DNA of 33,411 bases from Candidatus Peribacteraceae bacterium (GTDB taxonomy: Bacteria > Patescibacteriota > Gracilibacteria > Peribacterales > Peribacteraceae), in contig DATDVK010000110.1 of the NCBI GenBank assembly GCA_035290085.1, positions 1-33,411 on the forward strand, read 5' to 3'. Each line of letters starts with the position of its first letter. Position 1 is the first letter of the stretch. The notes below the pieces were generated by a model. It worked only from the letters and a program-made list of their open reading frames with translations, did no database searches and was not told the origin of the DNA. Shown in pieces: positions 14,849 to 31,387 of the stretch. A program made the translations under genes and the position numbers.

Positions 14849-15956
14849 GGATATGTTCCAGAATGTGGATACCGCAGCTGGCGCACGCGCCGCCGAAATT
14901 ATGGGAGAGCCCCCAACGGTTGCCTGAGTTCCTGAGTTGCTTGCTGACGTCAATGAGCTGCTTGATGCCGGTGGCAGCAACAGGATGGCCGCACGCCTTC
15001 AATCCTCCGCTCGCGTTGATGGTGGGGACTGGATCTGCCTGCTCATACAGTTCTATGCCTCTCCCCGGTTCCGCAAAACCCAGATCCTCCACATTGATGA
15101 CTGCTGCAATGGAGAAGCAATCGTGTACTTCGATGTGTGAAATGCTGCTCCGGTCGGTGTCTGCTTCCTCCAGTGCCTTCTCCATCGCTTTCTTCGTAGC
15201 AGGGAACGAGGTGATGCTCTCGCGTTCAGTCAGACTTACAGCATCTGAAGCGAGCTGGGAAGCGGCAAGCTTCATATCACTCTCGAATGCTGTCGAGAGG
15301 ATGCAGGCTGCCGCACCATCACTGATGGGGGAGCAGTCGAGCATGCAGAGCGGGTCTGCCACCTTGGGACTCTGAGAGATCTTCTCTGCGGGAATTTCTG
15401 CGCGGAACTGCGCGAAAGGATTCGCCACTGCATTGTGGTGGTGCACTGCGCTCACCGTATTCAGCCGTTCGCGTGTGAGACCGTACTCGAACATGTACCG
15501 CTGTGCGACGAGCCCGAAAATGCCGGGGAACGTGAGGCCACAGGGGGCATCTTTCTCGCTGTCTGCCGCTCCCATGAGCGCAGTGGATACCTCTGCGGGC
15601 GTTACGTCTGTCATCTTTTCCACGCCGAGTACCAGCACTGTTTTCGCACGGCCGCTTTCCAGGAGGGCGCAGGCGGTGTGCAGCGCGACTGCGCCGGATG
15701 CGCATGCGGATTCCACGCGGAGAGCGGGGGGTCTGTGCGGGAGGAGTGACGAAGCTAGCGCACCGAGGTGAGCCTGCGCGTTCGTCCGTTCGGCAATCAT
15801 GTTTGCCACGACGACCGTATCAATATCGAGTGCGGTGCAAGGGGCGTTTTCGAGGGCGTCGTCTATTGCCTCGTACATGAGGTCGCGGATGCCTTTTTCC
15901 CACCACTCTCCGAAGCGGGTCTGTCCTGAGCCGATGAGGAAAACATCCGTGTTCAT
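14841..15956 (-). CDS. Acetyl-CoA acetyltransferase (archaeal-type thiolase)
   Basis: Motifs VESACASG, NASGGLKACGHPVAATG and GGACASCG. The start ATG at 15956 overlaps the HMGCS stop (ATGA). The track N-terminal extension to 16310 overlaps HMGCS. Confidence 0.88.
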   Translation of the reverse strand: MNTDVFLIGSGQTRFGEWWEKGIRDLMYEAIDDALENAPCTALDIDTVVVANMIAERTNAQAHLGALASSLLPHRPPALRVESACASGAVALHTACALLESGRAKTVLVLGVEKMTDVTPAEVSTALMGAADSEKDAPCGLTFPGIFGLVAQRYMFEYGLTRERLNTVSAVHHHNAVANPFAQFRAEIPAEKISQSPKVADPLCMLDCSPISDGAAACILSTAFESDMKLAASQLASDAVSLTERESITSFPATKKAMEKALEEADTDRSSISHIEVHDCFSIAAVINVEDLGFAEPGRGIELYEQADPVPTINASGGLKACGHPVAATGIKQLIDVSKQLRNSGNRWGLSHNFGGACASCGIHILEHIHV

Positions 15957-16990
15957 GCTTGTGCTGTCACAGCGTGCCCTCGCAGGCTGTACTGTCCGTA
16001 CGTGAGGTAGCGAGGGGTGCGCGTATCGGTTGGGAGGAGCACTCCATCGCGGAGCATGGTGAAGAGGAATGCATCGGAGCCTGCTCCGGAACCGTAGGAT
16101 ACGAGGAGAATTGTCTCTCCTTCCTTCGCTTTCTGCAATACATGTGCGAGTCCCAGGGGGGAGCAGGCACTGTAGGTGTTGCCAATGCGGGGCACGATGA
16201 ACCCGTGTTTCATCTGCTCTTTCGTGAATCCGAACTCCTTGGCGATCTTGCTCGGGAACTTCGCATTCGGCATGTGCAGGATGACATGGTTTACATCTTT
16301 CACGTCGCATTCCGCCGTATCCAGTATCCCTTTCGTTGCCTCGCGCACGTGGCGGAAATACGCAGGCTCGCCGGTGAAGCGCCCGGCATGGCTGGGGTAC
16401 TTGTCATGGGCGCCGCGCCAGAAATCGGGAGTGTCGGTGGTGAAGGAGAGTGTGTAGTCAATACGGCAGAGTGCGTTTTTTGAGCGCTCCGGTCCTATGA
16501 CGAAAGCAGCGGCACCCGCGGCGGCTGTGTATTCCAGGGCATCGCCGGGGGCTGCCTGTGCCGTGTCGCTTCCGATGGCAAGCCCGTAGCGGATCTGCCC
16601 TGCGCGCACCATGGAATCCACGATCTGCATGCCGGCCGTACCCGCTTTGCAGGCGAATTCCAGGTCTGCACAATGGCAGAACGGATCGAGATCCAGCGCA
16701 TCCGCCACCATGCCGCTCGTGGGTTTGACGGCGTACGGATGGCTCTCGGATCCGACGAATGATGCGGAGATCTGTGACGGCTTCACTCCGGCGATTTCTA
16801 TCGCCTGTTTGGCTGCCTCGTACGCCATGGTGAAAGTGTCTTCCCCTTCGCCGGGGACCGTTTTCTCCTGCACTCCCAGCCCACTCTCAATGGCATGGGC
16901 ATCCTGCTGCCATTCCGCAGCAATGTCTGCGGTGCGGATGCGGTCACTCGGCAGGTACATGCCAAAACCGATGATGGCAGATTTGCTCAT
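15953..16990 (-). CDS. mvaS: Hydroxymethylglutaryl-CoA synthase, archaeal type
   Basis: 345 aa. Motifs GSESHPYAVKP, DLEFACKAGT (catalytic Cys) and HMPNAKF, with context between HMGR and thiolase. Confidence 0.88.
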   Translation of the reverse strand: MSKSAIIGFGMYLPSDRIRTADIAAEWQQDAHAIESGLGVQEKTVPGEGEDTFTMAYEAAKQAIEIAGVKPSQISASFVGSESHPYAVKPTSGMVADALDLDPFCHCADLEFACKAGTAGMQIVDSMVRAGQIRYGLAIGSDTAQAAPGDALEYTAAAGAAAFVIGPERSKNALCRIDYTLSFTTDTPDFWRGAHDKYPSHAGRFTGEPAYFRHVREATKGILDTAECDVKDVNHVILHMPNAKFPSKIAKEFGFTKEQMKHGFIVPRIGNTYSACSPLGLAHVLQKAKEGETILLVSYGSGAGSDAFLFTMLRDGVLLPTDTRTPRYLTYGQYSLRGHAVTAQA

Positions 16991-17026
16991 TTATGGCAGT
17001 GTAGCAGACCGCAGCGAAAAATCAGC

Positions 17027-18226
17027 CTATCTGGCATGTTTTTTGTGGGCAGACGCAAGGGTCTGGTTGGCCTGCGCAGCGAGAAGTGAGATTTCCCCTG
17101 CGAGGACTGCTGCTCCTATACTCTCAGCAAGCTGCCTGCAGGGGTGGAGAGACGTGCGGTTCTTCAGGAGCATCTGCAGGCACTGGTTCTGTGCAGGGAG
17201 GGCCGTGCCGCCGCCGCGGACGCCGATGAGCAGAGCAGGGAGGCGGGTGGAAACAGCGAGATCATCACCTCGGAGCTCCACAGTCGTATCTGCGAGCGAG
17301 CCTTCTACAACGTGTGCCGCGTCCTGGCCGGTTGCCAGGTACAGCGCAGCAATGACATTGGCAGCATGGAGGTTCGCTCCGAGTGCTCCTGCAATCTCCG
17401 ATCCTTCTCTCAGTTTTGCGTCCGCGACTGCCGCCATATCTGTTGCAGTTGTCTTCAGCATGGAGGAGATCACTGTACCGGGGATGAGTGTCTTGGCTGT
17501 CACTTCGTACCCGCGGCCGCGGTCATGCGTCCGTCGGCTCGGCTTCTTATCACTGTCGACATTCCCGGCGATGGTGATGAGGCGGGGGGAGTAGTCCTGC
17601 ATGTTTTGAACGATCCAGTCGCCCACTGCCTGTGCTGCAATCGTCACCATGTTCATGCCCATGGCTTCATCTGTGTCACAGAAGAGTGTGAGGAACACGT
17701 ACTGCCCCCTCACATCGACATCGGAGTCCATCACATGCAGATGGCTGCTCGTTGCCTCTGCAATTTGGCTCCATTTGGCTTGCAGATCCTGTAATTTTTT
17801 GGTGAACATTTGTACACCATCCGTGCTCTTTTCCCTCTTATTCTCACCGGAAGCTCCACCGATCTGAAAAGCGATGGACCGGGTCATGCCGTGGTGGGTT
17901 GAGAGCGTGTGTACGTCCGTCTCGCAGAGCACTTTGCACCCCCGATTGATGCTCGCGACGAGTGCGCCCTCGGTGGTGGCGAGCGGCAGGTGAACGGTTG
18001 TCTTCTCACCGGAGCTGCACAGGAATGTGAGCGGTCCGGCGTACCCAACAGGCAATGGAACCATGCCGAACATCTGTTCACAGTTTTTTTCGTCTGCTTC
18101 GCCGGCATGTTCATCGTCTGTGCGCGTGTGTGTAAGATCGAGTTCCAGTTCCTGCTCCAAGCGTCTGCGTCTTTCATTGCAGCGTTCACCGGGGGAGAGG
18201 CCGTCTCTGAGGTTCCGTAAGTCCAT
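17027..18226 (-). CDS. mvaA: HMG-CoA reductase, class I
   Basis: 399 aa. Motifs PLATTEGALVAS, DEAMGMNM and IGVRGGGT. Confidence 0.9.
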   Translation of the reverse strand: MDLRNLRDGLSPGERCNERRRRLEQELELDLTHTRTDDEHAGEADEKNCEQMFGMVPLPVGYAGPLTFLCSSGEKTTVHLPLATTEGALVASINRGCKVLCETDVHTLSTHHGMTRSIAFQIGGASGENKREKSTDGVQMFTKKLQDLQAKWSQIAEATSSHLHVMDSDVDVRGQYVFLTLFCDTDEAMGMNMVTIAAQAVGDWIVQNMQDYSPRLITIAGNVDSDKKPSRRTHDRGRGYEVTAKTLIPGTVISSMLKTTATDMAAVADAKLREGSEIAGALGANLHAANVIAALYLATGQDAAHVVEGSLADTTVELRGDDLAVSTRLPALLIGVRGGGTALPAQNQCLQMLLKNRTSLHPCRQLAESIGAAVLAGEISLLAAQANQTLASAHKKHAR

Positions 18227-18242
18227 GTTCCACTATTGTGGA

Positions 18243-18270
18243 ATGGAAAATGAAAAATGGAAAATGGAAA
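18243..18270. repeat. Tandem heptamer ATGGAAA x4 (one ATGAAAA variant) in the HMGR upstream region
   Basis: Read directly: atggaaa atgaaaa atggaaa atggaaa. It abuts the palindrome TTCCAC-tatt-GTGGAA at 18228-18243. Confidence 0.8.
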
Positions 18271-18317
18271 AACAGGCAATTCTGAGTACAGCCGCTCGAG
18301 CATTTTCCAGGGGTTTC

Positions 18318-18812
18318 CTAAGAAAGCAGCTTCAGCATCAGATGCATGCGATCGATGTATCCTGCTCTGGCATAGAATTCGTGCGCGGAGATGTTCGGGG
18401 CGAAACAATCGACAAACGCGCAGGTGCACCCCTGTGTGCGGAAATATTCTTCCATTGCCTGCATCAGGCGCGTGCCCAAGCCGGATTTGCGGTGTTCCGA
18501 GGTCACGATCAGTTCGAGGATGGAGCCACTCTTCGACGGGTATGATTCCAGTGAGTCGATTTCGTTCTGTTCGGAGATAATGCCGACGATACATCCTGCA
18601 ATGCGGTCATCCTCCTCTGCGACGAAGATATTCCCGGAGCACTTTTCCACCCGCTTAAGCGTGCAGTCGATGTATGCGTCACCGTTGAATGCCGGAAGAT
18701 CCCGCGTCCGTTTGAGCGTGTCAAGATCGGAGACGTACTTCTGTAGCTCTTTGATGCATGACTTGATGCTTTCTCTGTCCGATGGCCGGTACTCGCGGAT
18801 GACCGCTTCCAT
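18318..18812 (-). CDS. GNAT family N-acetyltransferase
   Basis: 164 aa. RKSGLGTRLM acetyl-CoA motif A, with GNAT length. TATCAT lies 6 nt before the ATG. Confidence 0.85.
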   Translation of the reverse strand: MEAVIREYRPSDRESIKSCIKELQKYVSDLDTLKRTRDLPAFNGDAYIDCTLKRVEKCSGNIFVAEEDDRIAGCIVGIISEQNEIDSLESYPSKSGSILELIVTSEHRKSGLGTRLMQAMEEYFRTQGCTCAFVDCFAPNISAHEFYARAGYIDRMHLMLKLLS

Positions 18813-18852
18813 ACCACAATGATAGCAGGAATATCTGTTGGATTTCTGTTAC

Positions 18853-18997
18853 CTGATACCACTTCGCGTTTAAAACCGCACAAATCATTTTGATGTATCA
18901 ACTCGCTGTTCTAGGCTTGAGTAAACGCTACGTGGCACGAGAGGAGAGAGTAATTTGTTCTCTGGTGAGTGTCTTTTTTGTTGCAACTTGGTATGAG
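18853..18997. repeat. 145-nt intergenic repeat, copy A
   Basis: It shares ataccacttcgcgttta, aaacgctacgNggNacNagaggagagag and ttgcaacttggNat blocks, in the same order and spacing, with copies at 28731-28876 and 31090-31233. The centre has diverged. Confidence 0.8.
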
Positions 18998-19029
18998 AAG
19001 GAAACACTCGTGCTCCGATTTCTCAGTGA

Positions 19030-20040
19030 TTAAGGGATCAAGCATGCACCTGGTCCTGTCTTTGTCTCGAAGAGGGCGCATCCTTCCTGTGCCCGTGCGA
19101 AGGCCAGCACCCGGTCACGTGCTTCCTCCGTGCAGAGCAGCTGGACCGTCGGGCCAGCATCCATGGTGTAGAATACGGGAAGGTGCTCGCTCCTGCGCAG
19201 CTCCGTGATGTCTCTCGTGATACGGTGCGTGTCCTCCGTGAGGTAGTCGAGGGGCGGCGTGCTCGTCCGCATCACATGGTGCATGTCGATGCAGTCTTCC
19301 TCTACCACGCGCTGTAACTTCTCAAAGTCCTTCGCGAGGACCGCATCGATGCACTCCTGTTGCCGCCAGTTCCTGATGGCTTGCACCCGGGCAGCGTAGT
19401 GCGGGCTGGTGTGTGCGGTCGCGTGCCCCTCCGTGGAGCCGATCTTCTTTTCCTGCAGGGAGGGGACCAGGATGATGTCGTGGAGAGCCCAGTGATGCTC
19501 GTCTGCATACTGTCTGCCGTAGGCGCTCCCGATTGCATCACTCTCTCCTGCGAGGAGTGCGGAGAAGCCCCCGAAGATGCTGCGGGCGGCTGAACCGGAG
19601 CCGAGCCTTGCAAGGACGCTCGTCTGCTCGTCTGTGAGCTCGATCGTTGGAAGGATAAGCCCCTGCAGTGCGCGGGCGAGGCAGCTGAAGACGGCGGAGG
19701 AGGAAGCGAGCCCGACAGCTGAAGGGATCTGAGAGCGCACGGTAATCGTTGCGGATGCCGGGAGGGCATCTCCAGCGCCGAGCGTGCGCAGGTACTGCCT
19801 GATGAGCTCCAGCGTCTTCCCAAAGCGCTGGATATGCGCTGTCCCGAGCTCTTTCTCCGAGCCGTCCGGGCTGAAGGAGCGCACGCTGAGGACATCGGCA
19901 TGGTCCAGTGTGATCTCCACGGTCGGACTATCGAGCGTCATGGAGAACGAGTCTGCCATGGGGAGCCGTAAGGCATTATTCCGGTTGCCCCAGTACTTCA
20001 TCCAGGCGCTGTTCGGTGTGGATCTTGCAGTGACACTCAT
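19030..20040 (-). CDS. mvaD: Diphosphomevalonate decarboxylase family (MVD; could equally be a phosphomevalonate decarboxylase)
   Basis: Motifs WMKYWGNRNNALRLP and VGLASSSA (GHMP). The start ATG at 20040 overlaps the MVK stop (ATGA). The track extension to 20292 overlaps MVK. Confidence 0.85.
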   Translation of the reverse strand: MSVTARSTPNSAWMKYWGNRNNALRLPMADSFSMTLDSPTVEITLDHADVLSVRSFSPDGSEKELGTAHIQRFGKTLELIRQYLRTLGAGDALPASATITVRSQIPSAVGLASSSAVFSCLARALQGLILPTIELTDEQTSVLARLGSGSAARSIFGGFSALLAGESDAIGSAYGRQYADEHHWALHDIILVPSLQEKKIGSTEGHATAHTSPHYAARVQAIRNWRQQECIDAVLAKDFEKLQRVVEEDCIDMHHVMRTSTPPLDYLTEDTHRITRDITELRRSEHLPVFYTMDAGPTVQLLCTEEARDRVLAFARAQEGCALFETKTGPGACLIP

Positions 20041-20873
20041 ACATTGAGAGTGGAAAAGTGTGTGGGGACTGCGCGCAGGATCTTCTTGTGGTCTTCGTGG
20101 AGCACCAGGAGCATACCCCCGCCTCCCGTACGCCCTCCGGCTCCGATGATCTTCGCGCTGCCGCCTGAGTTCTCTATCTTTTCCACGAGTTCCTGCACAC
20201 TCTTCGGAACCACGCCCAGTGCCACCTGAGCGCGATGATGCTCGCGCATCACATTCCCAAGGTCTTCTCCTTCCATCAGTTTCTCTGTGCAACGGCCGAT
20301 AGTCCTCAGTGCTGGTTCAAGTTTTTCTCTGCGCTCCGTAATCCATGCAATGAGTTCCGGGGTCGTCTCGTTCGGTGCCCCCGTATCTATGAGCATCGTG
20401 TTCTTGAGGAGATTTCGAGGAAGCTTGATTGTTTCCGGCTTGTTGTCTTTCTGAAAGAGGGTGGGGGTGTTGTTCCATATCACAGAGAAATCCAGACCGC
20501 TGTGCCCGGGGTTGAGCGCATTCTCAATCTCCAGTGCTTTTTCCCTGCAATCTTTCCCAAGCAAACATCGGGAAACAGCAATGACAAGTGCGGTGGACGA
20601 ACCCATGCCTTTTCTCAGCGGGATACTGTTCTCAATGGTGAGATCTCCGGAGCATTTGCCGCACTGTGCGATGATGTGTTTCAGGTACTCCTGCCACTCC
20701 GGTTCCCGTGCGATTCCATTCCAGTGGATCCGCAGGTCTCTTGTGTCTTCCTGATTTTCCAGCGTTACTTTCATCGTGAGCGGCGATGGTACGGCGATGC
20801 CGGGGTAGCCAAAGAGGACGGCAAACTCTCCTGAAAGAATAATTTTCCCCGGTGCGGATGCTGTGCGTTTCAT
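20037..20873 (-). CDS. mvk: Mevalonate kinase
   Basis: 278 aa. Motifs APGKIILSGEFAV and KGMGSSTA (GHMP motif), plus C-terminal GAGGRTGGG. TGGTATCCT lies 10 nt upstream of the ATG. Confidence 0.88.
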   Translation of the reverse strand: MKRTASAPGKIILSGEFAVLFGYPGIAVPSPLTMKVTLENQEDTRDLRIHWNGIAREPEWQEYLKHIIAQCGKCSGDLTIENSIPLRKGMGSSTALVIAVSRCLLGKDCREKALEIENALNPGHSGLDFSVIWNNTPTLFQKDNKPETIKLPRNLLKNTMLIDTGAPNETTPELIAWITERREKLEPALRTIGRCTEKLMEGEDLGNVMREHHRAQVALGVVPKSVQELVEKIENSGGSAKIIGAGGRTGGGGMLLVLHEDHKKILRAVPTHFSTLNV

Positions 20874-21010
20874 CTGCCTTCGCAGGATACCATTTCCGTG
20901 CTTGTATCTTGGAATACATTCTGTGGAATTACGATACTGCTATGGCAGATTGCGCATGTACACGATGGATTCTTCATGGTGTTATTTTATAGCTGCGGGA
21001 TTTGAGAGCT

Positions 21011-21694
21011 TCATCCTCCGAATCGTCGGGAACGCTCCGTGTACGCATCCACCTCTTTCGCCAGGTCTTGCGCAGTGAACTCTGGGAATTTCTTCTGAGG
21101 GAACGCCCATTCGCTGTAGGTGGATTGCCAGAGGAAGAAGTTGCTCGTGCGCTTCTCGCCCGAGGTGCGTATGATGAGATCGATGTCGGGGAGTTCGGGG
21201 TGATCCAGATGTTTTCGTACGGAATCCTCTGTCGCATCTTTGGTGCTTTGCATTTTCCGGATGGCGCGGATGACCTCGTCGCGTCCTCCGTAGTCCAGTG
21301 CGAGGTGCAGCGTGAACGCGGTCATCTGTTTGCTTTCCTCTTCTATTTCACCGATGAGAGTCGCCAGCTTCTCCGGAATGCGGTCTTTGTGTCCCGAGTG
21401 CACAAGGCGTGTTTGCTTCTCCCGGAAGAGGTTCCTTTCCTTCATGAGGTACTCCTCGAGCATTCCCATGAGCATCTCGATTTCTTTCACGTCCCGTTTC
21501 CAGTTTTCGGTGGAGAAGCACCAGATGGTCAGTACGGCAATGCGGGGATCCTTATGGCACCAGTCCGTGAGGGACCGGAAATTGGCCACTGCTTTCCGGT
21601 GGCCTTCCCACGGGTCCAGCGCATGCTTCCTGGCCCAGCGTCTGTTGCCGTCCGGAATGATGGCGATGTGCAGGGGGGTCGTTCTTTTTTCCAT
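21011..21694 (-). CDS. uppS: Isoprenyl transferase (undecaprenyl diphosphate synthase family)
   Basis: Motifs IIPDGNRRWA and RTSGEKRTSNFFLWQSTYSE. The ATG at 21694 is preferred; the track GTG at 21766 would add 24 atypical residues. Confidence 0.88.
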   Translation of the reverse strand: MEKRTTPLHIAIIPDGNRRWARKHALDPWEGHRKAVANFRSLTDWCHKDPRIAVLTIWCFSTENWKRDVKEIEMLMGMLEEYLMKERNLFREKQTRLVHSGHKDRIPEKLATLIGEIEEESKQMTAFTLHLALDYGGRDEVIRAIRKMQSTKDATEDSVRKHLDHPELPDIDLIIRTSGEKRTSNFFLWQSTYSEWAFPQKKFPEFTAQDLAKEVDAYTERSRRFGG

Positions 21695-21774
21695 TGCTGC
21701 GTGAAGTGTAGTGGCGTTCCGAAGGAGGAAGTAGAAGAAAGAGGGGATATCGGCTCTCCATTGCACCTATTCCC

Positions 21775-22290
21775 TCATTTGAGGAGTTGCCTGAGGCCGA
21801 GCGTGAACCAGGGAGCGTACGCATCCGGATTCCTTTTCATATCTGCGAGCACTTTCTCCACCGGCGTCCATTTCGTTTCAGCGATCTCGTCTGGGTCCGG
21901 TTTGGTGTCCTGATTTCCGTCCACATCTCCCCGGAAGAGCGTGACATGTTCATGTTCGACTCCCCGTCCGCCCGGATCCTCAGCGCGGTACACGAGGGTG
22001 CCGGCCTCCCGCAGGCTGCACTCGATGCCGCATTCTTCCCGCAGGCGCCTTTTCCCTGCTTCCAGTATCCCTTCGCCCGGGAGCGGGTGGCTGCAGCAGG
22101 TGTTTGCCCAGAGGAGAGGGAAGAGCATTTTCTTGCTGCTCCGCTTCTGCATGAGGATTTCTTTCCCATCCTTCCGGAAGACGTACACGGAGAAAGCCCT
22201 GTGGAGCTTCCCTTTCCCCGTATGGGCATCCACGATCTCTGCATGACCTGTTTCCTTCCCCTGTCTGTCTGTGAGTACGACGTTTCGCAT
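21775..22290 (-). CDS. idi: Isopentenyl-diphosphate delta-isomerase, type 1 (Nudix)
   Basis: 171 aa. Motifs HRAFSVYVF, WANTCCSHP and EHEH. Confidence 0.88.
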   Translation of the reverse strand: MRNVVLTDRQGKETGHAEIVDAHTGKGKLHRAFSVYVFRKDGKEILMQKRSSKKMLFPLLWANTCCSHPLPGEGILEAGKRRLREECGIECSLREAGTLVYRAEDPGGRGVEHEHVTLFRGDVDGNQDTKPDPDEIAETKWTPVEKVLADMKRNPDAYAPWFTLGLRQLLK

Positions 22291-22373
22291 GGAGCCACCA
22301 TGCTCTCCTCCTTTGCTCTGCTACGCAAGTTGGTACTACTATTTTCACGATTTCCCCGTTCCGTCTCCATCCG

Positions 22374-23651
22374 TTGGCGCAGCAGCTCAATGCCGTTCTC
22401 CGTGAGCAGCATCCTCCGCTCTTCTCGTTGCTCTCGAAGAGGGGGAAGGCTATCTATTTCCCGTTCGATGGCATCCTCGGCCAGACTGCAGAGGCGAAGG
22501 GGAAGAAGTACGATGCAACCATTGGCATTGCCCTGGAGGATGATGGGACTCCCATGCGTCTGCGGGCGATTGGTGCGCGCGTCGATCTGCCGCCCGGAGA
22601 GGTGTTCTCCTACGCTCCCAGCTTCGGGAAGAAGGAGCTGCGGGAAACGTGGCGGCGGATGATCCTTGAGAAGAATCCTTCTCTCTCCGCGGAGGTCAGC
22701 CTGCCTGTCGTCACCGGTGGCATTACGCATGCGATGAGCATAGTTGCATCCATTCTGCTCGATGCCGGCGATGAGCTGCTTCTCCCGGATCTGTACTGGG
22801 GCAACTACGATCTCATCTTCTCCCATATGTACGGGGCGGGGCTCCGGACCTTCCGCACATTCAAGGGAGGCTGGTTCGATACCGGGGCGCTCCGGTCCGC
22901 ACTCCGGCGGGGGAAGGGCAAGAAGGTACTTCTGCTGAATTTCCCGAACAACCCAAGCGGCTACACTCCCACGGAGGAGGAGGCGCAGCGCATCGTTTCC
23001 ATCATCCGCGAGCGTGCCGATGCCGGGGATACCATCGCCGTGCTTCTGGATGACGCGTACTTCGGGCTCGTCTACCGGGAGGGTGTTTTCCGCGAGTCGC
23101 TCTTCTCTCTGCTCGCAGATCTCCACGAGAGGGTTCTTGCGGTGAAGATCGATGGTGCATCCAAAGAAGAGTATGTCTGGGGGCTGCGCATCGGCTTCGT
23201 CACATTCGCTGCAAAGGGGATGACCTCCGCAGTGCGTGAAGCATTCGAGGCGAAACTTGCGGGTACGGTACGTGCCACCGTCTCGAGTGCCTCGCACCTC
23301 TCCCAGAGCCTGCTCCTTGCAGCCTATGCTGACGAGTCCTATGAGCGGGAGAAGTACGAGAAGTATGCCATTCTGAAGGATCGTTTCGAGGAGGCACAGC
23401 GCGTCCTCTCCGATCCGAAGTTCGCGTCGGTCTTCACGCCCCTCCCGTTCAACTCCGGCTACTTTTTGTGCGTGGAGCTGCGGGAAGGACTGGATGCGGA
23501 AGCCATCCGCAAAAAACTTCTCTCCGCATTCGATACGGGAGTGATAGCGCTCGGCAACAAGTTCCGCATCGCGTATTCTTCCCTTCCTGTCTCCGCCATC
23601 CGCCCCTTGTTTGAGAATCTCTACCGGGCGTGTTCAGCAATGAAGCAATGA
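22374..23651 (+). CDS. PLP-dependent aminotransferase, class I/II
   Basis: 425 aa. NFPNNPSGY and the GASKEEYVWGLRIGF Lys motif. TTG start, with TTGGTACTACTAT at 22330-22342 upstream. Confidence 0.85.
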   Translation: MAQQLNAVLREQHPPLFSLLSKRGKAIYFPFDGILGQTAEAKGKKYDATIGIALEDDGTPMRLRAIGARVDLPPGEVFSYAPSFGKKELRETWRRMILEKNPSLSAEVSLPVVTGGITHAMSIVASILLDAGDELLLPDLYWGNYDLIFSHMYGAGLRTFRTFKGGWFDTGALRSALRRGKGKKVLLLNFPNNPSGYTPTEEEAQRIVSIIRERADAGDTIAVLLDDAYFGLVYREGVFRESLFSLLADLHERVLAVKIDGASKEEYVWGLRIGFVTFAAKGMTSAVREAFEAKLAGTVRATVSSASHLSQSLLLAAYADESYEREKYEKYAILKDRFEEAQRVLSDPKFASVFTPLPFNSGYFLCVELREGLDAEAIRKKLLSAFDTGVIALGNKFRIAYSSLPVSAIRPLFENLYRACSAMKQ

Positions 23652-23671
23652 GCATGTTCTCTCTTGGAAGT

Positions 23672-23781
23672 CTGGGTTTTGAGTACTGGAATACTAGAAT
23701 ACTTGAGTACCTGAATACTTGATCACTTGAAATATCCGAGTATTCCAGTGCTCAAGTACTCAAGGGAAAAAACCCAAATAC
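23672..23781. repeat. Array of 8-nt GA(A/G)TACTT units that switches to the reverse-complement unit AGTACTCA, forming a ~100-nt imperfect palindrome
   Basis: Read directly: gagtactg gaatacta gaatactt gagtacct gaatactt gatcactt ... agtgctca agtactca ... aatactca. Inner arms 23679-23695 and 23739-23755 are complementary with 1 mismatch. Confidence 0.75.
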
Positions 23782-23784
23782 TCA

Positions 23785-24699
23785 ATGCTGCATATCCCAT
23801 ATTTCCTCTATACTGCAGCTCCTGTGCAAGGCAGGCAGAACATTCTCGGCCAAGACTTCGCGAAGATGCTGAGAGGCGGGGTCATTATGGATGTTGTGAG
23901 CGCGGAGCAGGCATGCATTGCGCAGGCTGCTGGAGCGTGTGCTGTCATGGCTCTCGAACGCATACCGGCGGATATCCGCACGCAGGGCGGGGTGGCACGC
24001 ATGAGCGATCCGCAGCTCATCCGCGAGATACAGGAAGCAGTCTCTATTCCCGTCATGGCGAAGGTGCGCATAGGGCATACGGCGGAAGCGCGCATCCTCG
24101 AGGCTCTTGAGATCGATTTCATCGACGAGAGCGAGGTGCTCACGCCGGCAGATCCTTTCGCACACATCGACAAAACACAGTTTCAGGTGCCGTTCGTCTG
24201 TGGCGCAACCAATCTCGGCGAAGGTCTGCGCAGAGTGGAGGAGGGGGCATCGATGATCCGCACGAAAGGCGAGGCCGGCACAGGAAATGTCATTGAGGCG
24301 GTGCGTCACATGAAAATTATCAGGAGTGGAATCGCATCGTTGAGTGAGATGAGAGAGGAGGAGCTTGCCACGTTCGCTTCCAGGGAGCGGATATCTCTTG
24401 GTCTTGTGCGGAGTGTGCGGGATGCAGGGCGTCTTCCCGTTGTCACGTTCGTTGCGGGAGGAGTGGCCACTCCTGCCGATGCGGCACTACTCATGCAGCT
24501 GGGTGCCGAGGGCGTGTTCGTGGGGTCCGGCATCTTCAAAGCAAAAAATCCGCGGAGAATGGCCGAGAGCATCGTGCAGGCAACCATCCACTTCAGCGAC
24601 CCGAAGAAGCTTCTCGAGGTATCCACAGGTCTCGGAGATGCGATGCCCGGAGAGGAGATAGGGGCAGTTTCTGTCCGTATGCAGGACCGCGGCTGGTAA
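23785..24699 (+). CDS. pdxS: Pyridoxal 5'-phosphate synthase lyase subunit
   Basis: Motifs [25 protein letters not shown] and a C-terminal RGW. An alternative leaderless GTG start at 23824 lies 10 nt after TATACT (23808-23813) and gives an N-terminal length like known PdxS. Confidence 0.93.
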
Positions 24700-24701
24700 G
24701 T

Positions 24702-25262
24702 ATGGCAGCCGGTGTGCTCGCATTGCAGGGGAATTTCGCAGATCATTGCCGCGTGCTCCGGAGCATCGGGTGTGTCTGCAAGGAAGTGCGCTCACTGCAT
24801 GATCTCGTTCTCGTTGACCGCCTCATCATTCCCGGGGGAGAGAGCACGGTCATCGGGAAACTCCTCCAGGAGTCCGGACTTGCTCAGGAGATCAACCGCC
24901 GCCGCAGGGAAGGGAGGTTCCCGGTGTTCGGCACGTGCGCAGGCGCCATCGTCCTTGCGGACGAAGTCACGGGGACTCCGGTTCCCTCCCTCCGCCTCAT
25001 AGACATGTGCATCGAGCGAAATGCATACGGGCGGCAGTTGCAGAGCTTCCAAACGGATCTTGTTCTCCACGGTCATGCTGCGCCTGTGCCAGTTTCCTTC
25101 ATCAGGGCTCCGAGAATTGTACGCATGGGGCCTTCGGTCAATGTCCTGGCGACGCACGGCGGTTATCCTGTGCTGGTGCGACAGGGAGATGTGCTGGCGG
25201 CCACATTCCATCCCGAAGTGCATGAGGAAGCAGTGCTCCACAGATTGTTCATGGAGATGTGA
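24702..25262 (+). CDS. pdxT: Pyridoxal 5'-phosphate synthase glutaminase subunit
   Basis: Motifs GVLALQGN, IIPGGEST and the FGTCAG catalytic Cys. It starts 2 nt after pdxS. Confidence 0.92.
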   Translation: MAAGVLALQGNFADHCRVLRSIGCVCKEVRSLHDLVLVDRLIIPGGESTVIGKLLQESGLAQEINRRRREGRFPVFGTCAGAIVLADEVTGTPVPSLRLIDMCIERNAYGRQLQSFQTDLVLHGHAAPVPVSFIRAPRIVRMGPSVNVLATHGGYPVLVRQGDVLAATFHPEVHEEAVLHRLFMEM

Positions 25263-25292
25263 AAGGCGGAGATTTTCGGTATACTTTTCTCT

Positions 25293-25913
25293 GTGTCGGC
25301 GTTCCTCACCATTGCTGTCATCCATTTTCTGGCTGTTGTGAGCCCTGGTCCGGATTTTGCCATCGTGACCCGGAATAGCCTGAGTTACTCACGGAGGGAC
25401 GGTGTTGCCACCGCGGCGGGGTGCGGACTGGGTATCCTTGTTCACGTTTCCTATTCGCTCCTCGGGATCGGACTCCTGATCTCGCGGTCCATTTTGCTTT
25501 TCACCATTATCAAGTACATTGGTGCTGCCTACCTTATCTACATCGGGTGGAAAGCGCTGGCTTCGAAGCCAGAGAAGGTTTCTGCTCTGTGTGCCCAGAA
25601 GCTGCGACCGATCACTCTGAGGCAAGCGTTTTGCAATGGTTTCTTCACGAATGTTCTCAACCCGAAAGCGACACTGTTCATGCTGGCACTTTTTACGCAG
25701 GTGATCGAGCCTTCTACTCCCGTAGCTGTCCAGGCTTTCTACGGGATCTACATGGGTGTTGCTACATTCGTGTGGTTTTCATTCATTGCTTCTGTTTTTT
25801 CTCTCCGTGCCATCAGGCAGTGCCTCGGGGACATCCAGTCGGGCATCGAACGTTCCATGGGTGCGGTGTTGATTGCCCTGGGTCTGAAAGTGGCACTTTC
25901 GGCACAGGAGTAG
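25293..25913 (+). CDS. LysE/RhtB family amino-acid exporter
   Basis: 206 aa with about 6 hydrophobic helices and an N-terminal VSPGPDF motif. The GTG start lies 7 nt after GGTATACT (25278-25285). Confidence 0.82.
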   Translation: MSAFLTIAVIHFLAVVSPGPDFAIVTRNSLSYSRRDGVATAAGCGLGILVHVSYSLLGIGLLISRSILLFTIIKYIGAAYLIYIGWKALASKPEKVSALCAQKLRPITLRQAFCNGFFTNVLNPKATLFMLALFTQVIEPSTPVAVQAFYGIYMGVATFVWFSFIASVFSLRAIRQCLGDIQSGIERSMGAVLIALGLKVALSAQE

Positions 25914-25919
25914 GGAGAG

Positions 25920-25935
25920 GGAAGAAGCTTCTTCC
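25920..25935. terminator. Perfect 16-nt palindrome ggaagaagcttcttcc between convergent genes
   Basis: Read directly. It has no loop or U-tract and overlaps the stop of the minus-strand gene, so a terminator role is uncertain. Confidence 0.25.
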
Positions 25936-26606
25936 TACTCTTCTGTTCCTTCCACTTCCTCTTTCTCATAGAGTGCCTCTTCCCGTTCCCGAACTTCCTG
26001 CCGGATGCACATGATGCGCTGTGCTCCCCGCTTGTAGCGGCACACAACTTCTGCTTCCTTCTGGAAATCCTGCCTCTTCTCGAGTTTTTCACGGATTTCC
26101 CGTTCCATTGTCTGCATATCTGCTCTGCGGAGGGACCGGATATCTTCGTACTTTTCAAGATTCTCGCTTCTCCCGCGGATCTGCTGGCTTACACGATTGC
26201 GGACATTATCGCCTGTGCGATTCTGTATGAACTGGTTACTCGATTCTATGGTTCTCTGTGTCTGTGAGGAGCGTATACGCTCCGTGCGTGACTGCTGTCG
26301 TTTCTCCCTCTGTCCAGCCAAACGGCTGATATCCTCCTGTTTTTTCACAGTATTCAGACAGCGGCGCACGTAGAAACGCAGAGGGTTATCCACTTCCCAG
26401 AGGTACCCGATGTTTCCTGTGGAGAATCGGATGGATTCCTCATCAATTCCCACTGCTTTCATGCAAGCTGCTTCTGCTTCTTCCTCGGTTGCAAACGGTC
26501 CCTCCACTTCCAGGTACTTTTTTACAACCGGGCGTGCGGCAAATGCCACGGTTGGAATGAGCAGTACAAAGAGCGTACCGGTGGCAATAAAGGAGTGGAG
26601 TTTCAT
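25935..26606 (-). CDS. Secreted hypothetical protein, R/E/K/Q-rich C-terminal half
   Basis: MKLHSFIATGTLFVLLIPTVAFAARP is a signal peptide. The track N-terminal extension to 26849 overlaps the upstream gene. No family was recognised. Confidence 0.6.
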   Translation of the reverse strand: MKLHSFIATGTLFVLLIPTVAFAARPVVKKYLEVEGPFATEEEAEAACMKAVGIDEESIRFSTGNIGYLWEVDNPLRFYVRRCLNTVKKQEDISRLAGQREKRQQSRTERIRSSQTQRTIESSNQFIQNRTGDNVRNRVSQQIRGRSENLEKYEDIRSLRRADMQTMEREIREKLEKRQDFQKEAEVVCRYKRGAQRIMCIRQEVREREEALYEKEEVEGTEE

Positions 26607-26694
26607 AAGGAGAGGGGGTACCCGCAATTTTGCGCGTAGACTGCTTTTCGTGCAAACGCATCCTATTGGCACAGCCCTGAAACCTGACATAGAT

Positions 26695-28557
26695 TCAAAG
26701 GACTGTCCCGGGAGAATCACCTCTGCCAGACACTGATTCCTGTACTGGCAGAAGGACGATTTTCCCGTCGGGATCCCCCTGTCCTGCGGGGAGATACTTC
26801 TTCCCTTCATCCATGAAGAGTAGTGCACAGAGGTGTTCCTGCTTTGCAAGCGGCAATTGTTTCTCTGTCATGCTCACGAACCGGATATCTGTGCCCATCT
26901 GTTTTGCTCTCACAAAAAGTGGATAGTGATAGTACGAGAGCACACCGACGTTGTGGCAATCCATTCGCATCAGTTCGTCGATTGCATGTTCGTACGCGGT
27001 TTGCTTCTGGGGGCCGAGATCGTAGAAATACTGCGGCCACCTGTCGGCTATAAGAATGGAAGGAGCTCCCTTCCCCATCAGGAGCGTATTGGGAACAATG
27101 GGATTTAAGTCGCTGAAAAGCAGGGCGGGGATCGCTGCAACGTACAGAAATACCGCAATGAGTCGCAGCCATTTTCTTGAGGTAGCCGTAGCGAATGCTA
27201 TGCCGACTACAGGAGCAGCCAGTATGAGGAAGGGCATATGGAGTCTTGTCCCGTAAGGATTCCAACTGAGGAATGACCAGGTGATCACAAGACCGCCGAG
27301 GATGGCACCTAGGTACCAGTAATGCTGCTTTTTCTTGGGGAGAGAGAGCAGTGGCACACTCACAACACTTAGAATAATGATAAGGAAATGGAATGGGTTT
27401 CCGGCAAATACTTCATGCGTTTGTGATTTTGGGATATTGAATTCTTGGGATTCGGTGTTTGTACGGTCGATTTCTACGTGCATCACTGCATGTATGTTCT
27501 GGATACCTCGTTCGACAAATGGATTACCGACCATAAGTAATCCTGTTTCGAGGGAGGCATTCTTCAAAATATTCGAAGCGGCAATCGCCGGAGAAAATTC
27601 AGTGTTGATGTTTGTTGCCATATCTTTTCTTGGAACGAGGAAATGCCCAATACTTTCGATGTTTCGGAGGTACTGTGTGGCATTCAGGCTAAGAGCGATG
27701 CTGCCGACTATCAGTGCATGAGAAAGCAGGCGGGTTGGTTGCTTGCGGAGCGAAAGGATGTACCAGAGCACGAATGCGGGGGCGAAAAAATAAGCATTCA
27801 GTTTTGTGAGTAAGCTGAGTCCGAGCACTACTCCTATACGAAGAGCGTTTGCCGGGGATTGGCTGCATCTGTCCCTGAGGATGAGATATGCCAGCATGAG
27901 CAGCCAGAAGGTCACTGCGTGTGTCGCCGTTGCGTTCGTGGACTGCAGTATTCCTATGGGGAGTGTTGCAGCGAAAACCAGTGCAAAGCGTACTGTTCGC
28001 CGCTCCGCGCCGAGCTCTCTGGCGATGAGTGTCACCAGGAAGAGCGAGCCGGCGAATGCGAGCCACTGGGGCATGTGGGCCAGCAGGTCTGAGTCTGTGA
28101 GGAGATAGAGCTGTGCAATGAGGTACTCCGTCAGTGGTGGCATGTACAGCTGCCGCAAATCGAGCGCAGGGTAGTGCACAACGGATTGGTGCTGCACCCA
28201 GTACGCCACTCTTGTCATGTGGTAGCTGATGGAGTCGTGATTGTTCGGAGGTGTGGAGATCGCAATAGCGAAGGTGACGAGGAGGATTGTCCCGATGAGG
28301 ATGACGGTGATCGTCTCTCCTCTGAGTATGTTTCTGGTGTACGAGAGGAATGATCTGCGCTGTTCCCAGAGTTTCTTTCCAAAGAGCAGCCACCCAACGA
28401 TGCCCACGATGCTCCACAGGAACACCACCCATAGTGCGTTCAGCGCATGGAAAAAAGAGAGAAGTTCTGTGATGCCTACAATGGCCACTCCAAAGAAAAG
28501 TGTGATGTCAACGAGGAGGGGCACTTCGAACAAGTGTTCTTTCCCATCTGTTCGCAT
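26695..28557 (-). CDS. Polytopic membrane protein, GT-C fold glycosyltransferase-like (ArnT/PMT, GT39/GT83-like)
   Basis: About 620 aa with many hydrophobic helices. The first-loop motif PPNNHDSISYHMTRVAYW resembles the family. The ATG at 28557 is preferred because the first 12 codons of the track ORF (to 28593) lie in the MITE-like element and its -35/-10 boxes. Confidence 0.55.
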   Translation of the reverse strand: MRTDGKEHLFEVPLLVDITLFFGVAIVGITELLSFFHALNALWVVFLWSIVGIVGWLLFGKKLWEQRRSFLSYTRNILRGETITVILIGTILLVTFAIAISTPPNNHDSISYHMTRVAYWVQHQSVVHYPALDLRQLYMPPLTEYLIAQLYLLTDSDLLAHMPQWLAFAGSLFLVTLIARELGAERRTVRFALVFAATLPIGILQSTNATATHAVTFWLLMLAYLILRDRCSQSPANALRIGVVLGLSLLTKLNAYFFAPAFVLWYILSLRKQPTRLLSHALIVGSIALSLNATQYLRNIESIGHFLVPRKDMATNINTEFSPAIAASNILKNASLETGLLMVGNPFVERGIQNIHAVMHVEIDRTNTESQEFNIPKSQTHEVFAGNPFHFLIIILSVVSVPLLSLPKKKQHYWYLGAILGGLVITWSFLSWNPYGTRLHMPFLILAAPVVGIAFATATSRKWLRLIAVFLYVAAIPALLFSDLNPIVPNTLLMGKGAPSILIADRWPQYFYDLGPQKQTAYEHAIDELMRMDCHNVGVLSYYHYPLFVRAKQMGTDIRFVSMTEKQLPLAKQEHLCALLFMDEGKKYLPAGQGDPDGKIVLLPVQESVSGRGDSPGTVL

Positions 28558-28564
28558 AGCCAGT

Positions 28565-28593
28565 ATTCTAGACACGGCGTCGTTCCCAATCAA
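28565..28593 (-). promoter_or_regulatory. Promoter TTGATT - 17 nt - TAGAAT, 7 nt before the ATG at 28557 (leaderless-type)
   Basis: On the minus strand, -35 TTGATT lies at 28593-28588 and -10 TAGAAT at 28570-28565. The TAG is the terminal triplet of the inverted repeat, the same geometry as at trpS. Confidence 0.5.
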
Positions 28594-28705
28594 ACTTTCA
28601 CCCGACTCCGCAGGAGGCCACGGCCGTAAGGCCGTGGAGCTTCACTGGCTTTGCACAGCCATTATCGTGGCAATGATGTTCACCGACAAACGACGCCGTG
28701 TCTAG
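28568..28705 (-). mobile_element. MITE-like palindromic element, copy 2 (perfect 17-bp terminal inverted repeats, ~104-bp core with a GC hairpin)
   Basis: ctagacacggcgtcgtt (28568-28584) pairs with aacgacgccgtgtctag (28689-28705). The reverse complement of the right end, ctagacacggcgtcgtttgtcg, matches the copy 1 left end over 22 nt. The internal hairpin is ccacggcc-gtaa-ggccgtgg (28618-28637). Confidence 0.55.
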
Positions 28706-28730
28706 TTGGAGGTGAACGGCGATGCCACTT

Positions 28731-28876
28731 CTCATACCACTTCGCGTTTATAAACGATGCCAGTGCACTGCAGTTTTGCAGAAGCAATTCTTGGCTTGTG
28801 CAAACGCTACGCGGTACGAGGAGAGGAAGTCTCCGTTCTCGAGATTAGTATCTTTATTATTGCTGCCAAGTGTCAG
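28731..28876. repeat. 145-nt intergenic repeat, copy B
   Basis: By hand alignment it is roughly 75-80% identical to copy C over its whole length. The right end overlaps the MFS stop codon. Confidence 0.8.
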
Positions 28877-30027
28877 AAAAAGATGATCGGCAGTGCACTC
28901 ACGCTTCCGATGAAGAAGGAAGTCCGGATGCCATTGGTGAGGAACATCAGTCCAAGGAAGAGCATCGTACGTCCGAAGAGGAGAGAAAACTCTTTGAACG
29001 CAAAGAATTCGAGCGGCGATGCACTCTTTTTTGCCGATTCGTTGACAATACACTCAAATGGAACGTCCACGAGTATCTTCACCGTTGCGGCAATAACGGC
29101 TAGGTAGACGAGGAGTGTGGAATGGAGGGCAATGCCGAGGACGGCGAGCATGACTGCTGTCGCGACGACACCGATTCTGAGGACAGTACGTCTCCCGAGC
29201 CTGTCCACGCTGTGGCCGATTTTCATGGCGCAGAATACATTGCAGAGAGTGATGACAGACATAGCGGTACCCAGGAAGACAATGTCGCTTCTGCCGAGGA
29301 ACAGGGCAATCGGAAGAACAGCGAAGAATATGAATCCTTTTATGCCGTAGAGATTGAGCATGAGGAACATTTTCCGGTGGGTGCGGAAGTAGTGCCGGAA
29401 GTTTGTGAGCCGGAAGTGCGGGTGGTCCATGTTGCCCTCCACGAATGCGATGGGCACGACGGAGAATATGAGTACGAGGGAGACAATGGTGTAGAGCATG
29501 GCATAGCCAAACGTCATGACCACCCATCCTCCGGCAAGTGGGCCAAAGATTGTTCCCAGTGTGGGGAGTGCGATAAATTTGCTGGTTTGTGCTCCTTCGT
29601 GCCTGCGGGACATTACCTGTGAGAACAAGGAACTGATGGAGAGGGTGTAGAGACAGGAAGAGGTTCCGAGCAGCAGGGCAGGGAAGAGGTAGTACGATTG
29701 CAGCGAAGTGTTGGAGTTCATGGCACCGAGGTAGACGAGTGCCCCTACGAGAATGGGTGTGCGCAGGAGCACAACTTCCTTGATACCAACACGGCTGATG
29801 ATCATGCCGGAGAGAGGCGCCAGCAATCCAAAACACACCCATTCGACGAGGAGAAAGAGAAATGTCTGCCGGAGGGAAAATCCTAATTGCAGCAGCTGTA
29901 TGGGCACGAAGACGGAGATCATGGAAATAGCGATGGATTTCACTACTAAGTGCACATAGATGCCCCGGAGCTCCTCCTTCATCTGGCAGATTTTACTGAT
30001 GTGGTGCTGGTGTTGTTTGGTGTACAT
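28873..30027 (-). CDS. MFS transporter
   Basis: 384 aa with about 12 hydrophobic helices and the motif-A-like VDRLGRR. TGGTAAAAT (30046-30038, minus strand) lies 10 nt upstream of the ATG. Confidence 0.75.
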   Translation of the reverse strand: MYTKQHQHHISKICQMKEELRGIYVHLVVKSIAISMISVFVPIQLLQLGFSLRQTFLFLLVEWVCFGLLAPLSGMIISRVGIKEVVLLRTPILVGALVYLGAMNSNTSLQSYYLFPALLLGTSSCLYTLSISSLFSQVMSRRHEGAQTSKFIALPTLGTIFGPLAGGWVVMTFGYAMLYTIVSLVLIFSVVPIAFVEGNMDHPHFRLTNFRHYFRTHRKMFLMLNLYGIKGFIFFAVLPIALFLGRSDIVFLGTAMSVITLCNVFCAMKIGHSVDRLGRRTVLRIGVVATAVMLAVLGIALHSTLLVYLAVIAATVKILVDVPFECIVNESAKKSASPLEFFAFKEFSLLFGRTMLFLGLMFLTNGIRTSFFIGSVSALPIIFF

Positions 30028-30112
30028 GTATCAGTGCATTTTACCATATTTTCGTTTTTTTGGGTATCTCCTGCACTGTCAGCTCTCAGGAAATCCTAAG
30101 GTTTGAGTGGGC

Positions 30113-31066
30113 TCATACCCGTGGTTTCACTGTGTGCTCCGGCTCCTTCCCGGCCAGGAACTGATCGATGGACTCGAAGCAGTCAATGAACATGTTCTTC
30201 ATGCTGTCATCAGCGTAGAACGCGATGTGTGGCGTGGAGACGACGTTCGGGAGCTTGATGAGTTCTTTGTTCTCCTTGAAATTCTGTTCGTGCTCCAGCA
30301 CATCGAGCAGCGCGTACGCAACCTTGCCGCTCTTCAGTGCCTTGAGCAGGGCGTCGGAATCTATGAGGGAGCCGCGGGCGGTGTTCACCAGCACGACACC
30401 TTTGCGCATAGCTGCGAAGGCTTTTGCATTGATGATGTGCTCCGTCTCTTTGAGGGCCGGTATGTGCAGCGTAATGATATCGCTCTGCGAGAACAGTTCC
30501 GGAAGTTCCACGTACGTCACACCGAGGAGGTCTTCCAGTTCTGCGACGTGTACATGGTCACTCGCAAGGATTCTCATACCGAAGCCGTGCGCAATCTGTG
30601 CCACGCGGCGCCCGATCTTCCCCGTGCCAACAATGCCGATAGTCTTCCCGCGCAGCGCCATGCCGCGCAGGCCGTGGTAGTCGAATGTGCCTCCCTCCAC
30701 GCGGTCGTCCGCTTCCGCAACATGGCGGAGAGCACTGAGGAGCAGGGCGAAAACATGCTCTGCAATGACATGCGAACCGTAGTCCGGAACATTACAGACG
30801 ACGATGCCCCGTCTCTTACATTCTTCCATGTCGATGTGGTCGTACCCCACGGAGCGTGCTGCAACCAGTTTGAGCTTCGGGAGTGTATCAAGATCTTTCT
30901 TCTTCAGCTGTGAGTAAATGAATGTGGAGAGGATTTCTGCATTCTTGCACCGCTCCGGCACACCTTTGTCCTGGAGTTTCCCCGGGAGGACAAGACTCTT
31001 TCGGTATTTTGTCTGCACCTCTTTTTTGTCATCAGGCTCTATCTCGAGAAATACGATGTTGCTCAT
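30113..31066 (-). CDS. D-isomer-specific 2-hydroxyacid dehydrogenase (D-lactate/phosphoglycerate dehydrogenase-like)
   Basis: 317 aa. Motifs GIVGTGKIGRRVA (NAD site), NTARGSLID and STPHIAF. Confidence 0.88.
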   Translation of the reverse strand: MSNIVFLEIEPDDKKEVQTKYRKSLVLPGKLQDKGVPERCKNAEILSTFIYSQLKKKDLDTLPKLKLVAARSVGYDHIDMEECKRRGIVVCNVPDYGSHVIAEHVFALLLSALRHVAEADDRVEGGTFDYHGLRGMALRGKTIGIVGTGKIGRRVAQIAHGFGMRILASDHVHVAELEDLLGVTYVELPELFSQSDIITLHIPALKETEHIINAKAFAAMRKGVVLVNTARGSLIDSDALLKALKSGKVAYALLDVLEHEQNFKENKELIKLPNVVSTPHIAFYADDSMKNMFIDCFESIDQFLAGKEPEHTVKPRV

Positions 31067-31089
31067 AGAATAGTGGAGGAGTTGCTTCT

Positions 31090-31233
31090 ATCATACCACT
31101 TCGCGTTTAAACGATACCAATGCACCGCAGTTTGGCAGAAGCAATTGCTGACTTGTACAAACGCTACGCGGTACAAGAGGAGAGAGTTTCCATTTTCAGG
31201 AACAGTATCCTTGTAATTGCAACTTGGCATCAT
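31090..31233. repeat. 145-nt intergenic repeat, copy C (between divergent genes)
   Basis: Same blocks as copies A and B. The left end reads TGGTATGAT on the minus strand, 23 nt upstream of the dehydrogenase ATG. Confidence 0.8.
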
Positions 31234-31387
31234 CATGCAATAGCCTTTCTTTGTGAAGGGATTCTTGGTGGAGGAGATCCTTCTGCACTGCCGTATTCAT
31301 GCCTTCTGTATAAATTTGTTATATGCAAGACACTTGAATACTCAGCTTGGCAAACTATGCTGCTACCGTACGTTTCCCGCTCTTCCT

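Follow-up and report, generated by a model that had tools for sequence, protein, structure and literature searches.

An intergenic repeat of Candidatus Peribacteria is very probably a recently active MITE with TNA target duplications

Genomes of CPR/Patescibacteria are small and usually described as poor in mobile DNA. In Neisseria, the Correia elements (CREE) are about 100-155 bp long and bounded by terminal inverted repeats (TIRs), and their termini together with the target-site duplication (TSD) create outward-facing -10-like boxes. Correia elements duplicate TA, and experiments have demonstrated promoter, IHF-site and RNase III functions for them; they are an orphan MITE, for which we know of no cognate transposase. 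Correia elements often adjoin genes (PMC10969869). Duplications of three bases are found in other groups: IS1031-group elements insert at TNA with an exclusive 3-bp repeat (PMC12016507), and elements of the PHIS superfamily typically give 3-bp duplications, some of them with fixed outer bases, such as TWA in PIF/Harbinger and C|TNA|G in NuwaII (PMC4482050).

We analyzed a stretch of 33,411 nt from a Candidatus Peribacteraceae assembly (contig DATDVK010000110.1, hereafter the window). A sequence-only reading had pointed to three intergenic segments of about 145 nt that share one order of blocks, and reading and aligning the segments bore this out. The 17-mer ATACCACTTCGCGTTTA has three exact occurrences in the window for 0.03 expected, block 2 (AAACGCTACGYGGYAC) likewise occurs three times, and block 1 is an imperfect reverse complement of block 2 with three mismatches. 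A profile made from 15 diverged members of the family matches the window exactly three times (nhmmer E ~1e-31 to 1e-30), with matches extending over 18857-18993, 28735-28867/72 and 31094-31229. The segments as originally delimited were thus real and reached a few bases into the flanks; Table 1 lists the elements themselves. Copies B and C, estimated by hand at 75-80% identity, measure 80-82% over 113-134 nt. Copy A has the ends and the central block in common with them and differs in the variable regions.

Table 1. Positions in the window of the three element copies, their parts and one unoccupied target site
Feature	Position	Strand	Details
MITE copy A	18857..18993	+	137 nt; left end = TACCACTTCGCG end; nhmmer E=1.1e-30, model positions 1-137
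Copy A left TSD (TGA)	18854..18856	.	identical to 18994-18996
Copy A right TSD (TGA)	18994..18996	.	identical to 18854-18856
Copy A left TIR (TACCACTTCGCGTTTAAAACCGCAC)	18857..18881	+	pairs with right end
Copy A internal TIR-like block 2 (AAACGCTACGTGGCAC)	18923..18938	+	third inverted copy of terminal motif
Copy A right TIR (…TTGTTGCAACTTGGTA)	18969..18993	+	end-to-end pairing in subfamily alignment
MITE copy B	28735..28872	+	138 nt; right tip degenerated to AAGTG; nhmmer E=2.2e-31
Copy B left TSD (TCA)	28732..28734	.	matches 28873-28875
Copy B right TSD (TCA)	28873..28875	.	doubles as TGA stop codon of minus-strand MFS gene 28873-30027
MITE copy C	31094..31229	+	136 nt; nhmmer E=1.4e-31
Copy C left TSD (TCA)	31091..31093	.	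matches 31230-31232
Copy C right TSD (TCA)	31230..31232	.	matches 31091-31093
Unoccupied TNA site (TCA, + strand)	19023..19025	.	filled by 137-nt copy D in other same-species strains

Boundaries of the family were defined by lining up near-identical copies from the MFXU01 assembly: the element starts with TACCAC, finishes with TGGTA and has an identical T-N-A outside each end. The element is non-coding and 135-139 nt long. It is composed of TIRs of about 25 nt (TACCACTTCGCGTTTAAAAC… / …ATTGCAACTTGGTA), a third, inverted copy of that motif in the interior (AAACGCTACGCGGTAC) and two variable spacers of about 35 nt. Alignment of 15 subfamilies reveals end-to-end pairing of the TIRs in 90% of cells, compared with 33-46% in slid controls; six pairs, amounting to 15 cells, have changed on both sides, and these changes are compensatory between subfamilies. 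None of 500 TIR shuffles reached the observed share of paired cells, number of both-side-changed cells or covariation score, and the observed values of two pair-count measures were reached by 3 and 5 of the 500. Block 2 is conserved also in the family members that lie outside the search-pattern selection described below.

Insertion duplicates three bases of the target. More specifically, an identical TNA stands on both sides of 109 of the 119 non-redundant full copies defined by the profile (TGA in 44, TCA in 42, TAA in 16 and TTA in 7), and the middle base agrees in 109 of 114. Identical flanking triplets were also obtained for 108 of 127 complete copies selected by pattern. All three window copies follow the TNA rule (TGA, TCA, TCA). 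Across the 119 non-redundant copies no 4-bp repeat was observed at the flanks, and an S|TNA|S context is weak. In having a 3-bp TSD with fixed outer bases the element resembles PIF/Harbinger-Tourist MITEs and other PHIS elements; PIF/Harbinger-Tourist elements differ in being eukaryotic, and in the Peribacteria TSD the middle base is usually G or C. Any TNA triplet reads as a stop codon on one of the two strands, and the TSD serves as a stop codon in 8 of 136 gene-end flanks of the family, which is roughly the chance level.

Comparison with related genomes provides the corresponding empty sites. Copy A is absent from four contigs (L244-L247) of a RIFOXYC2_FULL_55_14-like sister species that are 84-94% identical to the window over aligned blocks. 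In these contigs 77 nt separate the MVD and GNAT genes and include …GTTTCCTTC-TCA-GGTAACAG…, where the window has TCA-[137 nt]-TCA; on the minus strand of L244 the empty site is CTTC-TCA-GGTAAC, with a single TCA/TGA. This site was reached via the MVD ortholog, GNAT orthologs being too few or non-syntenic for dating; the best homolog of the window's MVD (92%) is from Candidatus Peribacteria bacterium RIFOXYC2_FULL_55_14. Copy B is absent at the syntenic locus L011 (MFYJ01000007.1, RIFOXYB1_FULL_54_35; 86-93% identity), where the site is ctacttcTCAgaagaag, i.e., …ctacttc-TCA-gaagaag…. At L011 the upstream MFS gene ends with this single TCA (stop codon TGA), and duplication of the triplet restores the stop. 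Copy C is the older insertion since it is present at the orthologous L011 site, with 93.4% identity and a nested 33-nt hairpin insert. Accordingly, copy C was inserted before the lineage parted from the MFYJ01 relative, and copy B after that.

Insertion polymorphism was also found within the species of the window. A further copy, D, fills the unoccupied site of Table 1 with a 137-nt insert and a duplicated 3 nt in contigs of five assemblies (L105, L106, L107, L109 and L111; 97.6-99.8% identical to the window), while L108, L110 and the window have the empty site. In three further runs the contigs end at exactly this place, running into TACCCCTTTGCG… and …CAACTTGGTA. The strains that segregate copy D are 97.6-99.97% identical. 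Copies B and C are fixed, being present in all strain contigs that extend across them (for copy B, L113-L117; L118 stops inside the copy). With B and C fixed and D polymorphic, the family has been inserting from before the last speciation until essentially now, and it is recently active in the window's own lineage.

The sequence-only reading had called the segments portable, and TIRs, TNA target duplications, empty sites and within-species polymorphism establish that they are mobile DNA. Given the short size, within the range of about 50-800 bp for MITEs, and the lack of coding capacity, TIRs, fixed-length TSD, high copy number and empty sites, we conclude with high confidence that the element is a MITE, that is, a non-autonomous and non-coding DNA transposon, 135-139 bp long, whose hosts are Candidatus Peribacteria (Peregrinibacteria, CPR). 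A palindromic repeat of the REP/BIME kind, or one spread by recombination, with no DDE transposase involved, would agree with the fact that a cognate transposase was not found in the flanks examined. Such an origin is nevertheless very improbable: REP-type elements come without the regular 3-bp TSD that 109 of 119 copies have here, and the empty sites contain precisely one TNA.

The search for additional copies located the family well beyond the window. We scanned one genome per species, 185,579 species in all, with the pattern ACCACTTCGCGTTT-N40-60-AAACGCTAC and obtained 104 matching stretches, all of them in 11 Peribacteria/Peregrinibacteria MAGs (the assemblies are labeled Candidatus Peribacteria, Peribacteraceae or Peregrinibacteria). 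This distribution marks the window as a Peribacteria (CPR) fragment, in agreement with the best MVD homolog and with related contigs from assemblies of groundwater metagenomes. A scan of metagenomes gave at least 120 matches and one of viral contigs none; a further scan of metagenomes with the TIR of copy D gave no match. Copy number is highest in MFXU01 (RIFCSPHIGHO2_02_FULL_51_15), with at least 135 profile matches, 104 of them full length, and 75 copies are one identical 135-mer, TACCACTTCGCGTTTAAAAC…GTTTTAAATGCAAAATGGTA. The remaining genomes contain 1-6 copies each, belonging to diverged subfamilies. When genes were modeled crudely from ORFs, 131 of 133 copies fell between genes.

The family also leaves its mark on assemblies. 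At many MFXU01 loci (e.g., L002, L007, L020, L021, L031, L040, L062, L066, L068), contigs or scaffold gaps stop about 90 nt into the MITE, and the Ga0155281, Ga0155828 and Ga0156152 contigs stop in the same manner. The MITE repeat is thus a main cause of the fragmentation of the MFXU01 MAG.

The sequence-only reading had considered a structured RNA as another possibility. Such an RNA would be either a cis-regulatory element (riboswitch or leader) or a small RNA in which blocks 1 and 2 form a stem around a variable loop. The pairing on which this is based is real: 12 of 15 positions are paired between blocks 1 and 2, with 79% of cells paired versus 28-53% when the partner is slid, and the element lies in the 5' regions of three window genes. 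When this stem was tested for compensatory changes, however, no covariation was found; no pair has changed on both sides, and changes in block 2 are uncompensated. The 'stem' is a real inverted repeat, namely the internal third copy of the TIR motif, and the covariation that was seen connects one terminus with the other, which is what TIRs should show. Single-sequence folds of either strand have unremarkable stability (MFE z -0.2 to -1.8). Rfam gave no match at the gathering threshold in the whole window and, at E<=1 over 18820-19030, only a chance CRISPR-DR35 match outside the element; the window has no tRNA or tmRNA genes. Moreover, the downstream genes are functionally unrelated (GNAT, PMT-type glycosyltransferase, dehydrogenase), copies occur in both orientations relative to neighboring genes, and TSDs and empty sites identify the element as mobile DNA. 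The RNA reading is therefore largely refuted, and we give it very little credence.

A small protein gene on the plus strand is less credible still. ORFs 28757-29107 and 31120-31473 start inside copies B and C, respectively, and share a similar N-terminal peptide (…LGLxKRYAVREE…), a similarity that follows from the identity of the DNA. Across the 15 subfamilies this 'KRYAV' frame shifts relative to the element ends and has no conserved start, and several copies (MFXU main, CAZLUK, CAZWBO, JBBAAJ) contain in-frame stops. We rejected the frame as a gene on these grounds.

What the sequence-only reading took for a promoter module is explained by the anatomy of the MITE. Its TGGTAT(G/C)A boxes consist of the terminal TGGTA of the TIR followed by the duplicated TNA, and they face outward at both ends because the element is symmetric. 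Since TIR tip and TSD produce the box, its conservation requires no promoter function. The right-hand box of copy A, which had been described as pointing antisense into the MVD gene, is present and is simply the right TIR plus TSD. Promoter and terminator scans of the three loci gave no sigma-70-type site (-35/-10 with 16-18 nt spacing) leading out of the left end of copies A, B or C, a result that is to be read in view of promoter types in CPR being uncharacterized; an extended -10-like TGGTATNA is the only promoter-like feature at these left-end junctions.

Placement relative to genes was assessed on 133 copies with the crude ORF-based gene model. All three window copies do lie upstream of a minus-strand gene, as had been observed, but the family as a whole follows no such rule: the gene boundary that the left end faces is a start in 42 cases and an end in 70, and for the right end the numbers are 44 and 66. 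There is no orientation bias relative to genes among these copies, and the constant position upstream of a minus-strand gene is a coincidence of n=3. The absence of bias does not by itself bar promoter activity, as the same outward motif is found at both ends. In relatives without copies A and B, the corresponding genes are separated by 77 and 37 nt, respectively, so that no imported promoter is needed there; this spacing suggests operons that tolerate insertions and are co-transcribed. Three small metatranscriptomes from a related study had no reads over the 18 kb of window 15000-33000.

A promoter role has a precedent in Correia elements (PMC10969869), and a portable promoter module of this kind would use its ends and the TNA as outward extended -10 boxes (TGGTATNA) to drive adjacent genes. 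Both ends read TG-G-TAT-N-A outward, which gives two junctions per insertion; about 35 of the 86 start-adjacent copies are less than 50 nt from a predicted start codon, and the ATG of the 2-hydroxyacid dehydrogenase gene is 27 nt away from copy C, which is well conserved. We nonetheless judge this reading unlikely. The motif is wholly accounted for as set out above, the left ends of A, B and C have no site with a -35, gene ends adjoin copies more often than gene starts do (136 versus 86 flanks), the close spacing of the gene pairs without A and B suggests co-transcription, and the near-identical MFXU01 copies indicate a recent selfish burst.

Individual copies may still carry a function. The central block TTCTTGGCTTG…AAACGCTACGCGGTACGAGAGGAG is conserved beyond the needs of a purely selfish interior, and copy C is 93% identical to its L011 ortholog where the adjacent coding sequence is 88-89% identical. 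Together with the proximity of some copies to predicted starts, these observations make co-option a candidate for some insertions. The family could be a mobile regulatory cassette that Peribacteria have co-opted, composed of the central block and the outward TGGTATNA junctions, although we assign this only a low probability. The parallel with Correia elements extends to size, to the status of a TIR-bounded orphan MITE, to outward -10-like boxes formed from termini and TSD, and to gene-adjacent placement. The two differ in TSD (TA versus TNA), in sequence and in host, and any such function of the Peribacteria element would be a prediction from its sequence.

For the MITE itself, we propose that a DDE transposase supplied in trans would bind the terminal and internal repeats, make a 3-nt staggered cut at TNA and integrate the element, with gap repair yielding the duplication. 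The likeliest driver would be an IS1031-group-like transposase of the IS5 family (PHIS superfamily), as IS1031-group elements are recognized by their exclusive 3-bp duplication at TNA. The three window copies would be passengers in intergenic spacers, and any effect on their neighbors, whether by read-through or by the outward extended -10 TGGTATNA, would be a by-product. The IS1031 group and its derived MITEs share with the Peribacteria element the exclusive 3-bp TSD at 5'-TNA-3', TIRs of about 17-25 bp, intergenic location and multiple copies. In contrast to them, the Peribacteria element has no transposase gene inside or nearby and an extra internal copy of the terminal motif, and its host is a CPR bacterium. 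The TIR of ISLrh (GAACCTGTCTAGTATCT), the sole IS1031-group comparator (PMC12016507), bears no resemblance to TACCACTTCGCGTTTAA of the element here.

Several screens were directed at an autonomous partner. In the flanks fetched from 11 genomes, no TIR pairs 0.3-4 kb apart enclose a transposase and no ORF family is multi-copy. Left-end-only or half-element matches in about 1.6 Mb of flanks all fall at contig ends, N gaps or nested inserts. A phmmer search with IS5 InsH and HARBI1 queries, which is a weak and crude screen, gave no match, and no Myb-like or DDE_Tnp_4 partner was seen in these flanks. One 1.2-kb candidate for an autonomous element, at L004, was rejected, being two inverted MITEs that flank a thioredoxin/DsbA-like gene. 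At this place (L004 6237-7432, MFXU01000025.1) the two copies belong to a second subfamily and are abutted by a main-subfamily copy, in a layout that resembles a composite transposon. As with the Correia elements of Neisseria, the family must for now be called an orphan. As no cognate transposase was seen in the flanks from the 11 genomes, the enzyme might come from outside the chromosome, i.e., from the host bacterium, a plasmid or a phage, a possibility that we rank below the regulatory cassette. The lineage is episymbiotic, with a genome of about 1 Mb.

Other inserts were noted in the course of the analysis. Another MITE-like element, not related to the first and with 17-nt ends that match perfectly (CTAGACACGGCGTCGTT…AACGACGCCGTGTCTAG), is located at window 28568-28705 and ~3132-3215. 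Its 138-nt copy lies 10 nt upstream of the start codon of the PMT-type glycosyltransferase gene and is absent in L011, where a single CTAG is found, the target being TA or CTAG; with this insert and copy B, an operon spacer of 37 nt has grown to 315 nt. Nested within MITE copies of several genomes, at differing positions, are GC-rich hairpins of about 33-35 nt (CCTCCTTCGC…GAGCTTCGG…GGGCA…). These inserts occur in several places (L011 ~4978-5011; L013 ~5356-5390; L089 ~4308; L232 ~638-700; none in the window) and look like another tiny mobile palindrome. Another indel or insertion is seen between the start of the MFS gene and the stop of the dehydrogenase gene, where L011 has about 276 nt (3630-3906), including the hairpin ccacctttttccggcgaaaaaggtgg, and the window about 38 nt (30066-30104).

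Two neighboring regions of the window also deserve mention. The ~155-190 nt between copy C and a 1300-aa plus-strand gene (31230-31420) are 96.3% identical to L011, with flanking coding sequence at about 88%, and may represent a constrained 5' UTR or regulatory region, as judged from conservation. The minus strand of 15953-22290 carries a mevalonate-pathway cluster of IDI/NUDIX, UPP synthase, mevalonate kinase, MVD, GNAT, HMG-CoA reductase, HMG-CoA synthase-like and thiolase genes. Homologs of the GNAT are very few beyond close relatives, the next best being 52% identical.

The kind of element described here is well known, and the family appears to be undescribed. Transposons are unmentioned in the paper on complete Peribacteria genomes (PMC4736985), our literature search for MITEs in CPR returned no describing paper, and CPR are absent from a prokaryotic MITE review and a large MITE survey. 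For annotation, neither the TGGTATNA ends, conserved as they are, nor the inverted repeat inside the element should be called promoters or riboswitch-like RNAs. The recurring ~135-bp sequence explains where such MAGs fragment, and its insertions are usable as natural markers for strain tracking. If the regulatory-cassette reading were true, insertions like copy C would supply promoters or a host-factor site to unrelated genes. For the biology of Peribacteria, the family is a case of an active MITE burst in a reduced CPR genome, with insertions that segregate: one genome of roughly the 1-Mb class has at least 135 copies, and this, together with segregation among co-occurring aquifer strains, indicates that transposition is shaping these genomes now.
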